A stretch of 64,000 nucleotides of DNA from Eledone cirrhosa (Eukaryota), in assembly GCA_964016885.1 (NCBI GenBank), contig OZ024746.1, positions 46,624,001-46,688,000 of the forward strand. The letters are read 5' to 3'. Below, one piece after another: positions 48,343-52,833 of the stretch (position 1 is its first letter; each line of letters opens with the position of its first letter). A program made the translations under genes and the position numbers. The notes beneath the pieces are model-generated. The model was not told the origin of the DNA and searched no databases. It was given only the letters and a program-made list of their open reading frames with translations.

Positions 48343-48977
48343 GTAAGTATGTATATATGTATACGTACATACATATATGTATACAGACGTACAGTAGTAT
48401 GTATATATATACATACATGCACACATATATGTACGTCTGTATACATATATGTATGTACGTATACATACATACTTACATTTAAGTAAGTGCTGTACTAAGA
48501 GTGAGAAATGAAATATCGTTTCATTCTATTCCATTTATTGTTTTCGGTGTGCCCGTCCGACTGAACTCACTCGATATGCAAATTAGGCTGCTCAGCCGTT
48601 AATATGCATAAGGAAAGTATATACTTTCAGACGTTCAACCATCTGGCAGAAAGGTATACGATGCTGACGATAGCTAATAAGCTTGAAACTAGTACATCGT
48701 TCCTGTGTCAGTGTTGAAGAAAAAGGTGACGTGGTTGCCTAAACACTGTACGGCGTAATTCGGGCAGTTTGTTTGTTCACAAACAAACAAACCGAGCATT
48801 ATAATAAATGTTCGGTAAACCGATACGTGCATATATATATATGTGTGCATGTGTGTATATATATACATACTACTGTACGTCTGTTTACATATTTGTACGT
48901 ACGTATACATACTTACATTTAAGTAAGTGCCGTACTAAGAGTGAGAAATGAAATTTCGTTTCATTCTATTCCATTTA
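48343..48977 (+). mobile_element. Retrozyme-like repeat family R2 (440 bp period, >1 unit, short inverted 5' piece)
   Basis: AAGTAAGTGC recurs at 48481 and 48921. HHR at 48659-48699. No coding capacity. Confidence 0.8.
48659..48699 (+). ncRNA. Type I hammerhead ribozyme (R2)
   Basis: CGATG-CTGACGA-TAGCT-AATA-AGCTT-GAAAC-TA-GTA-CATCG. Stem I extends through CTGGCA..AGG / CCT..TGTCAG. Confidence 0.88.
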
Positions 48978-49368
48978 CACACACACACACACATATATAT
49001 ATATATATATATATATATATATATATATATATATATATATATATATACATATATATATATATGTATATATATATGTATATATATATATATATATATATAT
49101 ATATATATATATACATATGTATATATATATATGTATATATATACATATATATATATATATATGTATATATATACATATATATATATATATATATGTATAT
49201 ATATACATATATATATATATATATATATATATATATATATATATATATATATATATATATATATATATATATATATATATAAATAAAATATAGAGTTATT
49301 AACTCATATAGATACCCTGCAATTAACAAGCTTAAGCTATAAATACTGAGCATTATAATATTAAAAGC

Positions 49369-49550
49369 GGTGGATTGGCAGTATCAGTAGAGGGTCGGAT
49401 GCCATGCCTTCCAGCATAGTTACGCCCCTTTACGATCTGAGTTCAAATCCCGCCGAGGTTGACTTTGCCTTTCATCCTTACGGGGTCGATAAAATAAAGT
49501 ACCAGTAATGTACTGGGCAATTGCTGGCCTTGTGCCTAAAGTAGAAACAA
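49369..49550 (+). mobile_element. SINE family A
   Basis: Near-identical to the 37336 copy. TSD TTATAATATTAAAAGC at 49353-49368 and 49551-49566. Confidence 0.92.
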
Positions 49551-49864
49551 TTATAATATTAAAAGCAAGCAATAATAAGAATATTGATATTGTATGTATA
49601 TTCAATAAATAAAACTCGAGGATATTCATTGCCTTCAGTATAAAGTACGAACATTAAACGCTGAGATAAATATTTCCCAAATCAATGAGTTAATAACTCT
49701 ATATTTTATTTGTATTTCGGCTCCTTATCTGTTGAGCTTATAAAAATGAGTGTAAATAGGCTATTATTTCTATCATAACGACTCGCACTGCATATGACTT
49801 TCAACGCACGAGGTGTAAACTTTAGTGAGTTAATCGTTATGGATGTAATGTAACATTTAGTCTT

Positions 49865-49934
49865 ACCGCTGACGAAATGCCTACGGATTACTTGTTACAA
49901 ACATGATTCATTCAGGGCGAAATCTTTAGTCGGT
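49865..49934 (+). ncRNA. Possible degenerate hammerhead motif
   Basis: ACCG-CTGACGA-aat-GCC...GGC-GAAA-TCTTTA-GTC-GGT. Stem registers are imperfect. Confidence 0.35.
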
Positions 49935-50084
49935 CCGGGAGATGAAATGGTTATTGATATGGTATGTATGAGAAATCTTGTAACATCCCATATGATTCAG
50001 GTTGAATGATATATAACATTTGTGGTGTAATCTACCCTCGTAATTTTAGACATGGGTTTACTGTGTTTACTTCTACACATATTA

Positions 50085-50218
50085 TCATTGCTGTGGTGGA
50101 GTCTGTGCTGCTGTACGGGTCTGAGACTTGGACACTGACCAAGAAACTCACTCAGATGGATGGGTGCTACACGAGAATGCTGAGGATGGCTCTGAGCATT
50201 AATCAGTATACACTGAGG
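50085..50218 (+). pseudogene. Fragment of an RTE-clade LINE RT C-terminus
   Basis: [35 protein letters not shown]. Confidence 0.75.
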
Positions 50219-50425
50219 ATATATATATATATATATATATATATATATAAACATATATATATATATATATATATATATATATATATATATATATATATAT
50301 ATATATATATATATATATATATATATATATATGTATATATATATATATATATGTATATATATATATATACATATATATATGTATATATATATGTATATAT
50401 ATATGTATATATGTATATATATGTA

Positions 50426-51030
50426 TGTCGAGTCACTCTTGAGTGCTACTGGTAACATGTAACCCAGTACAACCTGTCGGCGACTAGACCTGCAACCCCA
50501 CCAAGTTTACTTGGTGTGGAGGGTGACTTTGCACACCCTGCAGGACAAAAAACAAAACCTAACAAAGGGCTGAAGAACTTATAAGGGGCAACGGCCATCC
50601 AAAAGTGTGTAAATATGTATATACACATGTACATATCTATGTATATGTGTATATACATGGATGCATGTGTATGTATATGCGCGGGGACATAGAAATAGTC
50701 GGGCTGGACACCGGATCGCGCGGTTAAACCACTGGGAGTAAAGGACCCCTAGCCTTTCTCAGGGCATTCTTCTAGGAGAAGGCAACTCAGGAAACTGGGA
50801 TAACTCCGATATAAAACCTGCGGCTCATTAGTTACCGATTATGTTGATCTTTGCTTCTTTTCGGGTTATAGCTACTGTCGCTCAGAGAGTGGGATTGGCT
50901 CAGTGCACAGTCTTTCTTCACTTTAAAAAATATCTTCACGCACAGGCATTGCAAGATAGAATTAATTAATAATTATTAATAATGGTATATCGTGCAATAG
51001 CCATATTCGATAACGAGGGGGCAGCCATCA
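50426..51030 (+). mobile_element. Diverged family C element
   Basis: GTGCTACTGGTAACATGTAACCCAGTACAACCTGTC..., CTAGGAGAAGG, GCACAGGCATTGC and terminal GCAGCCATCA are shared with 1325-1932. Confidence 0.7.
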
Positions 51031-51365
51031 TCACACACACACACACATATATATAAATTTCGTTTCATTTTTTCCGTTTATATATATATATATATATATA
51101 TATATATATATATATATATATATACATATAGCTATATACACACGCATATATATATATATATATATATATATATATATATATATATATATATATATGCGTG
51201 TGTATATGCGTGTGTATTCTTTTTGAATTTGCCACGGACGTAGAGACAGTGATTTTCTCAATGGCTAGGATTTCAGTCCACGCTTCGCTATTTCCTCTCC
51301 ACTGAATTATTTTTTTAATAAGTTTCCAGAGTCCTCGCTATGCCTGGAAACTTACATGAAAAGAG

Positions 51366-51447
51366 ACTTTCCTGACGACGGAATGCTTATCAATATGTTC
51401 TTCGGAAAATATATTTACTCCATTCCAGAAACTAATTAGTTGGAAGT
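51366..51447 (+). ncRNA. Type I hammerhead ribozyme in a solo island (51215-51648)
   Basis: ACTTTC-CTGACGA-C-GGAATG...CATTCC-A-GAAAC-TAATTA-GTT-GGAAGT. Palindromic stem III. Confidence 0.85.
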
Positions 51448-51719
51448 GATATTTTAGTATTTAGTATTATATATTTAGTCAATTTTATAATTTTTTTATA
51501 ATTTTATAATTTTCTTATCTTACGTCTCTCATATTATTGTTCTGCAACCCCATGCATTGAACCACAACGTTACTAAGACAAAACCTATATATTTGCTAGC
51601 ATTGATATGCATCTGTATGTATATAAATGTTACTAGATATAAATTCTTTATATATATATATATATATATATATATATATATATATATATATATATATATA
51701 TATATATATATATATGTAT

Positions 51720-52222
51720 ATAAACAGAAAAAATGAAACGAAATTTCATTTCCCACTTTTAGTACGGCTGTTACTTAAATATAAGTATGTACACATACAT
51801 ACATATATGTATACAGACGTACAGTAGTATGTATATATATATACATGCACACACATATATATGTACGTATGGATTCACCGAACACTTATTATAATGCTCG
51901 GTGTGTTTGTAAACAAACATCCCGTATTAAGCTGTAGTGTCTAGTAACCATCGTTGCTCGTTTGTTCAACACTGACAAAGGAACGCTGTACTAGTTTCAC
52001 GCTTATTAGCTATCGTCAGCAACGTATACCTTTCTGCCAGATTGGTGAACGTATATACTTACCTCATGCATATTAACGGCTGAGTAGCCCAATTTGCATA
52101 TCGAGTGGGTTAATCGGCCGGGTGCACCGAAAACGATAAACGGAAAAAATGAAACGAAATTTCATTTCCTGCTCTTAGTACGGCTGTTACTTAAATATAA
52201 GTATGTACACATACATACATAT
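51720..52222 (-). mobile_element. Retrozyme-like R2 copy (416 bp period variant)
   Basis: Reverse complement of the 48481 unit. HHR at 51984-52024. Confidence 0.8.
51984..52024 (-). ncRNA. Type I hammerhead ribozyme (R2)
   Basis: Reverse complement: CGTTG-CTGACGA-TAGCTAATAAGCGT-GAAAC-TA-GTA-CAGCG. Confidence 0.85.
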
Positions 52223-52226
52223 AGGT

Positions 52227-52833
52227 ATAAGCTTGAAACTAGTATAGCGTTCCTTTGTCAGTCTTGAACAAACGAGCAACAATGGTTGCGAGAGACTACA
52301 GCTTAATACGGGATGTTTGTTTACAAACACACCGAGCATTATAATAAATGTTCTGTGAATCCATACGTACATATATATATATGTGTGCATGTATGTATAT
52401 ATATATACATACTACTGTACGTCTGTATACATATATGTATGTACCTATACATACATACTTACATTAAGTAAGTGCTGTACTAAGAGTGAGAAATGAAATT
52501 TCGTTTCATTCTATTCCATTTATCGTTTTCGGTGTGCCCGGCCGACTGAACTCACTCGATATGCAAATTAGGCTGCTCAGCCGTTAATATGCATAAGGAA
52601 AGTATACACTTTCAGACGTTCAACCATCTGGCAGGAAGGTATACGTTGCTGACGATAGCTAATAAGCTTGAAACTAGTACAGCGTTCCTTTGTCAGTGTT
52701 GAACAAACGAGCAACAATGGTTGCTAGACACTACGGCTTAATACGGGATGTTTGTTTACAAACACACCGAGCATTATAATAAATGTTCGGTGAATCCATA
52801 CGTACATATATATATATATATGTGTGCATGTAT
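52227..52833 (+). mobile_element. Retrozyme-like R2 copy (435 bp period), inverted relative to the adjacent copy
   Basis: Starts inside an HHR (AAGCTTGAAACTAGTA at ~52229), with a full HHR at 52644. Confidence 0.8.
52644..52684 (+). ncRNA. Type I hammerhead ribozyme (R2)
   Basis: CGTTG-CTGACGA-TAGCT-AATA-AGCTT-GAAAC-TA-GTA-CAGCG, with extension CTGGCAGGAAGG / CCTTTGTCAG. Confidence 0.88.

Follow-up and report, generated by a model that had tools for sequence, protein, structure and literature searches.

How does a repeat that encodes no protein and carries a hammerhead ribozyme motif spread through an animal genome? This question is raised by positions 48,343 to 52,833 of a 64,000-nucleotide stretch of Eledone cirrhosa DNA (contig OZ024746.1, positions 46,624,001 to 46,688,000 of the forward strand; the whole stretch is called the window here), which contain members of a repeat family that we refer to as R2. 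Our analysis indicates that R2 is very probably a non-coding retrozyme of ~430 bp that lacks long terminal repeats (a non-LTR retrozyme) and is reverse-transcribed into (TA)n targets by a Penelope-like enzyme that starts at two fixed internal sites.

The first-pass annotation of this DNA had described three R2 insertions and a stub, with units of 416–440 bp, a type I hammerhead in every full unit, and copies longer than one unit. Units, motifs, copy lengths and stub all hold; the number of insertions does not. A minus-strand arm (51720..52227) and a plus-strand arm (52228..52856; blast, arm mapping) abut head to head with zero gap, and a short minus-strand arm (48343..48436, recognized in the sequence and by a blast match at 48389-48341 on the minus strand) precedes a long plus-strand arm (48433..48977; blast, arm mapping). 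Because of this zero-gap join and the short minus arm, the R2 content of the window resolves into two composite inverted insertions and a 27-bp stub. In insertion 1, the short arm has its 3' end at an inner site, ~214 nt past the cleavage site, and runs into a short TA run; the long arm, ~1.24 periods of 440 bp (48493-48933), ends at an outer site (u273, where u counts nucleotides from the predicted cut site) and is followed by a CA/TA microsatellite at 48993-49285. The ~60 nt between both end sites form a 'tail' with a conserved hairpin (48919..48977, plus strand; from arm ends and folding). In insertion 2, the minus arm has a period of 416 bp (52168-51752) and ends at the outer site (u274) into (TA)37, and the plus arm, with a period of 435 bp (52332-52767), begins within a truncated ribozyme and stops at an atypical end, u171, in unique DNA. 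The three long arms measure 545, 508 and 629 bp, every one longer than its single period. The stub (51055..51081, plus strand; blast, arm mapping) is the last part of the tail, with an outer-site end followed by (TA)n.

By its sequence features, that is tandem and dispersed units with a type I core, no coding capacity and low GC content, R2 is a non-LTR retrozyme. The region has ~31% GC, and open reading frames (ORFs) of at least 90 aa over the R2 unit are microsatellite read-throughs only. R2 carries no ORF for a reverse transcriptase and GIY-YIG endonuclease and is thus not itself an autonomous Penelope-like element. Terminal repeats are absent from the R2 arm maps; a primer-binding site or polypurine tract received no separate search.

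The insertion ends carry the main argument. We sampled 55 loci in genome order from exact matches to an anchor outside the ribozyme. Since TA repeats overwhelmed an unmasked blast, the counts of arm ends given here come from a redone search. Among 94 arm ends, 41 lie at ~u274, 35 at ~u214 and 18 elsewhere, so that two sites ~60 nt apart, both running into (TA)n, stand out. TA-rich DNA flanks 70 of the 76 typed ends vs 5 of the 18 atypical ones, in a genome that is itself TA-rich. These ends obey a strict pairing rule: both ends could be typed in 20 of the 31 head-to-head pairs, and each of these 20 has one end of either kind; no pair has two of the same (11 pairs have one atypical end, and 32 further arms are unpaired). 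After removal of two local duplicates, 18 of 18 independent pairs still follow the rule (binomial p 4e-6 under 50:50). The 5' ends, by contrast to these fixed 3' ends, are scattered, with 99 of 126 aligned stretches crossing the cut site and 3 beginning there. Paired fixed 3' ends are the Penelope 'tail' signature. The earlier proposal that R2 spreads by retrotransposition is supported by the pairing of fixed 3' ends, by 5' truncation at random points, by the inverted arrangement of the arms and by insertion into (TA)n.

The same rule governs an autonomous element next door. Immediately downstream of insertion 2, between two (TA)n runs, lies a 5'-truncated Penelope-like element with Hydra-clade motifs (53004..54487, plus strand), a candidate for the class of element that drives R2; it is composed of an ORF end (53004-53324), a 3' untranslated region and a minimal hammerhead-like motif at 54336. 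Full copies of this family (L161-L170) also sit in (TA)n targets and include many intact 785-aa ORFs with RWK, DKT, a CxCx5C linker, CxxC and CxH motifs and a C-terminal endonuclease. Judged by this motif list and by (TA)n insertion, the neighbour appears to belong to the Hydra clade; Pfam, PDB and homologue searches with the 785-aa ORF gave no match that names it, and a protein-cluster search returned clusters with GIY-YIG and RVT_1 members that serve as leads only. All 150 scored matches (at least 150 copies), several of them within 785-aa ORFs, have the same 106 aa at the C-terminus. The family is very young. Across 30 loci, its insertions end at two sites 111 nt apart, with one of each in 9 of 9 typed inverted insertions. 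Further Penelope-like ORF fragments occur in the window at 32521-32945 (minus), 25179-25556 (plus) and 19928-20176 (minus). The last is flanked by inverted 220-bp tandem repeats (18781-19209 and 20425-20853), beside which lie hammerhead-like cores at 18679 (minus) and 20957 (plus).

Two sister retrozymes share the window with R2. R1 (54544-55527) is a very young inverted insertion with a 466-bp unit; its ends fall at ~u225-233 and ~u301, about 76 nt apart, and among its 30 best-match loci 13 of 13 typed insertions have one end of each kind (four were untyped). The tail hairpin layout is common to R1 and R2. R3 (63326-64000, minus strand) is a 310-bp tandem whose helix III palindrome reads ACGCGT. 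The loci examined contain at least three other hammerhead families, in which helix III or II is longer (L074, L189, L032, L183, L184, L013, L043), several of them with U-U at the helix II base.

R2 is abundant. A 25-nt anchor outside the ribozyme has 31,998 genome matches with at most 2 mismatches, vs 0 for the reversed control, and 200 kb of arbitrarily picked DNA contained one R2 insertion; annotating R2 would account for up to ~0.4% of the 3.0-Gb genome. Among 60 loci we recovered 21 natural cut-to-cut monomers of 422-458 nt. Units within one insertion differ by a median of 3-4%, those from different loci by 10%. The largest array holds 49 full cores (L136-L138; C1:51.77-51.79 Mb), its neighbouring units differ by 4-6%, and it is a possible source locus. 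Two other arrays (L139 at C1:49.58 Mb, and L112) alternate two aged, diverged units exactly, in an ABAB order of up to 10 units with a lag-2 distance of 0 and lag-1 distances of 10-16 differences; private changes distinguish the end units and the inverted arm of the longer array. We considered this alternation as proof of a dimeric circle and set it aside as ambiguous, since later DNA duplication fits at least equally. Some long R2 arrays look DNA-amplified. A relative of R2 with 504-520 bp spacing (L167:20-260; L171-L195; 1,323 first-look candidates) shows more pair-keeping changes.

The hammerhead motifs in the window are found at 48642..48712 (plus strand, A-U subfamily, core CTGACGA at 48664-48670, predicted cut after 48694), 51971..52041 (minus strand, U-G subfamily, core at 52019-52013, predicted cut after 51989) and 52627..52697 (plus strand, U-G subfamily, core at 52649-52655, predicted cut after 52679). 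Each core follows the CTGACGA...GAAAC-TA-GTA pattern, and the bulged, extended stem I noted at first pass is present in the predicted fold; in the minus copy, a T>G change breaks one helix II pair. The motif is predicted to self-cleave after GUA. In an Rfam search, R2 has zero matches at the gathering score, including to Hammerhead_HH9 and Hammerhead_1. The best match is Hammerhead_HH9, at 19.7 bits vs a gathering score of 52 (E 0.0075; 131-nt stretch, full model length aligned). Matches at the E-value level were TA-repeat microRNA artefacts and were discarded. The 76-nt motif alone folds no better than shuffled sequences (z -0.9 to -1.5), and the consensus fold of 79 decayed copies is a weak structure. 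Folded as circles, natural monomers are compact (z -6.4 to -8.7, values inflated by TA self-pairing).

Is the fold under selection? The first-pass annotation had argued so from stem I, which reads CGATG/CATCG in the first copy and CGTTG/CAGCG in the other two. The change is indeed double and keeps pairing, replacing A-U by a U-G wobble; as a single double change, it amounts to one inter-subfamily event and is no proof. Over 87 units from 48 loci, the swapped pair is U-G in 65, A-U in 11, G-U in 9 and mismatched in 2, so that 85 of 87 are paired. Genome-wide, exact 39-nt ribozyme variants number 4,828 with U-G, 1,916 with A-U and 1,052 with G-U. The linkage is tight, yet it reflects just two or three evolutionary events. 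Variants common to at least 4 loci are absent from all 11 core positions; they affect 2 of 30 stem positions, which are those of the swapped pair, and 4 of 26 other ribozyme positions, vs 33 of 196 positions outside the ribozyme (8 of them one deletion). Paired sites changed less often than unpaired ones (4/108 vs 32/214, p 0.002), a contrast that is partly circular because the pairs were chosen from the same copies. Across families, the evidence is stronger: the R1, R2 and R3 ribozymes align ungapped over 71 columns with core columns invariant or nearly so, and the helix III palindrome is retained as ACTAGT or ACGCGT, its centre varying. In a cross-family test of a structure that we specified, over ten related sequences, 90.6% of cells pair and 11 of 17 pairs changed on both sides, vs 32-51% pairing in slid controls; because the ten sequences are related, these figures are not a probability. 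These results support selection on the ribozyme fold across families and, modestly, inside R2. The support does not extend to individual copies, for which random core decay had been named as the contrary sign: private changes amount to 1.4% in the core vs 2.3% outside (p 0.27), and core decay is not significantly slower than decay in the flanks. We propose that selection acts on source copies and that inserted copies decay roughly neutrally.

None of the sequencing runs that hold R2 is recorded as RNA, and we therefore read the nature of run X5 from its own contigs. One of these connects two GAPDH exons, with the 533-nt GT-AG intron between them spliced out and zero mismatches, which identifies X5 as spliced RNA matching the source genome; in the same check, X1 had no coverage there, and X4 and X6 gave nothing. 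X5 contains R2 over its entire stretch, including contigs that bridge the cut site. R2 is thus present in RNA, a statement of presence and not of level, strand, cleavage or circularity; summed contig depths were likewise not taken as copy number or expression level. In the part of the window at 52460-52800, the A-U type at position 52646 accounts for ~69% of summed depth in X5 and 22% in X1, vs 1,916 of 7,796 exact copies in the genome, a skew towards the type of copy 1 that is only a hint at particular active source loci. Several X5 contigs end near the cut site; these ends coincide with a polymorphic base, and we discounted them as signs of cleavage.

Taken together, these observations suggest the following sequence of events. 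Tandem copies would be transcribed, in keeping with R2 in the spliced-RNA run. By analogy with other retrozymes, the ribozyme would cut after GUA, probably as a dimer through the palindromic helix III, and monomers may then be ligated into circles. A Penelope-type GIY-YIG/reverse transcriptase protein would cut both strands of a (TA)n target and prime complementary DNA (cDNA) inside an RNA that is either a circle or an uncut multimer; priming would begin ~214 and ~274 nt beyond the cut, with one site used per strand. Two randomly 5'-truncated cDNAs would join head to head, or just one would persist, giving the pattern observed at the loci. Some arrays would later enlarge by DNA-level duplication. 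A more specific version, which we regard as rather doubtful, is that the strict pairing of a long with a short end reflects a single Penelope reverse transcriptase/endonuclease dimer, which holds one RNA by its tail hairpin and primes the two target strands from different sides of this hairpin. R1, R2 and R3 would then form a clan of ribozyme circles that exploit Hydra-clade enzymes through shape only, with no homology to the terminal repeat of the host element. If so, the intact 785-aa ORFs and the small RNAs would constitute a compact in vitro Penelope integration system and allow a first direct test of circle-templated retrotransposition.

Several points weigh against the proposal that a Penelope-like enzyme moves a self-cleaving R2 RNA. 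Insertion 2 in the window lacks an inner end. In 6 of 33 comparisons between adjacent opposite arms, at least 25% of the subfamily sites differ, which means that some insertions drew on two templates or represent two events. At the DNA level, we found R2 to resemble neither the neighbour's terminal repeat nor, beyond separate insertions, any of 15 Penelope 3' regions (three high-scoring regions proved to be R2 insertions in their own right rather than homologues). With no such similarity in one full family and 15 3' regions, the class of the driver is indicated and its family is not. The tails, 60 nt in R2 and 111 nt in the neighbour, are longer than the 30-40 nt in the literature. Helix III comprises 1-2 bp around its palindrome and the helix II base is U-U, which makes the monomer motif weak on paper; the shared-variant depletion in core and stems is borderline (2/41 vs 33/196 outside, p 0.054); and read-through over 32,000 copies could account for part of the R2 depth in X5. 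In the available text of a study of Xenopus retrozymes (bioRxiv 10.64898/2026.07.22.740005), 8 of 9 dimers remained uncleaved in vitro.

Within the Penelope-driven model, the form of the template leaves room for a second view, to which we give somewhat short of even chances: the enzyme copies an uncut multimeric transcript, cleavage and circles play no part in transposition, and the ribozyme serves RNA processing, stability or dosage. The earlier idea of a circular or multimeric template survives as this either-or, in that arms crossing the cut site cannot usually have been copied from a cleaved linear monomer, and circles and uncut multimers explain arms of more than one unit equally well. 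The circle itself is not singled out; reads across the GTA|CAGCG junction are no guide, since this junction is genomic sequence and such reads cannot separate circles from tandem DNA or read-through RNA. That hardly any arm begins at the cut site (the 3 of 126 above), the weak helix III and U-U at helix II, and tandem sources of up to 49 units all speak for the uncut transcript, as does the finding, in the sections of PMC11167929 available to us, that catalytic mutants left insertion of an anole element in vitro unaffected. Against it stands the core, invariant among subfamilies (0 of 11 positions) and among three families, which argues that ribozyme activity is selected; natural monomers also fold as compact circles, with the TA-inflated scores given above, and circles are known for coral, mussel and axolotl retrozymes (PMC7229834, main text).

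The remaining explanations dispense with an independent retrozyme moved by a Penelope-like enzyme. R2 could be no more than a terminal repeat (pseudo-LTR) orphaned when members of an autonomous Penelope-like family were truncated at the 5' end, as its insertion anatomy equals that of the autonomous element and the Xenopus retrozymes are described as homologous to such repeats (bioRxiv 10.64898/2026.07.22.740005, available text). We consider this improbable, since the R2 arms are head-to-tail tandems through several periods with no upstream ORF, and no R2-ORF fusion was found in the loci examined. A minisatellite spread at the DNA level, its hammerhead and pairing being relics or chance, would accommodate the missing Rfam match at the gathering score and the two perfectly alternating arrays, in one of which the private changes of the end units and the inverted arm fit local DNA duplication. 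The dispersal of the insertions, their two fixed 3' ends combined with randomly placed 5' ends, the strict pairing of ends and the covariation across families make this very improbable. Twin priming produces head-to-head arms, and the window contains an apparently whole ORF of a long interspersed nuclear element (LINE), a 1,127-aa open frame at 57476-60859 (plus strand) that we take from its motifs to be an endonuclease and reverse transcriptase protein. R2 might then be a short interspersed nuclear element (SINE)-like passenger of a LINE. This is the explanation to which we give the least credence: R2 has neither a poly(A) tail nor a simple-repeat tail of its own, and its two ends lie inside a tandem unit. 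Unlike in twin priming, the second arm has a fixed start and overlaps the first in sequence. The autonomous Penelope-like element has an identical end pattern.

How does the Penelope-driven retrozyme compare with known systems? Like the metazoan non-LTR retrozymes in the main text of Cervera and de la Pena 2020 (PMC7229834), R2 is non-coding, low in GC, dispersed and tandem, with one type I hammerhead per unit. It combines features that are separate in two axolotl motifs described there, the palindromic 1-bp helix III of HHR_Amex1 and the U-U at the helix II base of HHR_Amex2; axolotl retrozymes with these features cleave poorly as monomers and better as dimers (PMC7229834, PMC4209133, in the text available). 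Its unit of 416-458 bp lies at the upper edge of the reported 170-400 nt or beyond it, and cleavage and circles are predicted for R2, whereas circles have been found in known retrozymes (PMC7229834, main text). With Rfam Hammerhead_HH9 (RF02275, clan CL00010), R2 shares type I topology, a bulged stem I and an AA-rich loop II. By contrast, its helix III is reduced and its score is below gathering, so that it would be similar in working and is not a member. We found no published account of the R2 family or of paired ends in retrozymes, in a search of mostly open literature with Repbase and Dfam outside it: the main text of PMC7229834 does not contain 'inverted', 'tail', 'octopus' or 'cephalopod' (its supplement may list cephalopod examples), the available text of bioRxiv 10.64898/2026.07.22.740005 does not contain 'tail', and the main text of an Octopus vulgaris repeat annotation does not contain 'ribozyme' (PMC13282606).

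The class is already known, and the gain is mechanistic detail rather than a new system. Li, Clavereau and Pollet (bioRxiv 10.64898/2026.07.22.740005) reach the same conclusion, that retrozymes ride on Penelope-like elements; in its available text, their evidence is co-occurrence and terminal-repeat homology in 35 genomes, with no mollusc named, whereas ours is insertion anatomy, with no homologous terminal repeat found. Inverted 5' arms and one-sided tails are Penelope hallmarks (Craig preprint, in the part available), and Hydra-clade Penelope-like elements are described as targeting (TA)n and having RWK, DKT, CxCx5C, CxxC and CxH motifs (Craig 2021, PMC8557442, accessible text). According to the available sections of Frangieh 2024 (PMC11167929), the purified Penelope-like protein Poseidon PAc cuts and extends both strands and starts at two internal sites that define the tail, with ribozyme activity unnecessary for insertion in vitro. 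R2 resembles PAc and the Hydra clade, as these sources portray them (PMC11167929, PMC8557442), in its two start sites downstream of the hammerhead, one-sided tail, inverted 5'-truncated arm and AT-rich or (TA)n targets; unlike Penelope-like elements, it encodes no protein, and its tail is 60 nt. It also differs in that PAc in vitro showed no start-site difference between strands (PMC11167929, same sections), whereas inverted R2 insertions have one site of each kind. The account of animal retrozyme mobility has hitherto rested on co-occurrence with and sequence likeness to Penelope-like elements. Here, a protein-free ribozyme repeat bears the insertion signature of Penelope in a form that can be counted, and a very young autonomous family next to it follows the same rule. 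This narrows the open step in Penelope integration, the coupling of two start sites to two cut strands, and supplies a natural enzyme and RNA for its assay.

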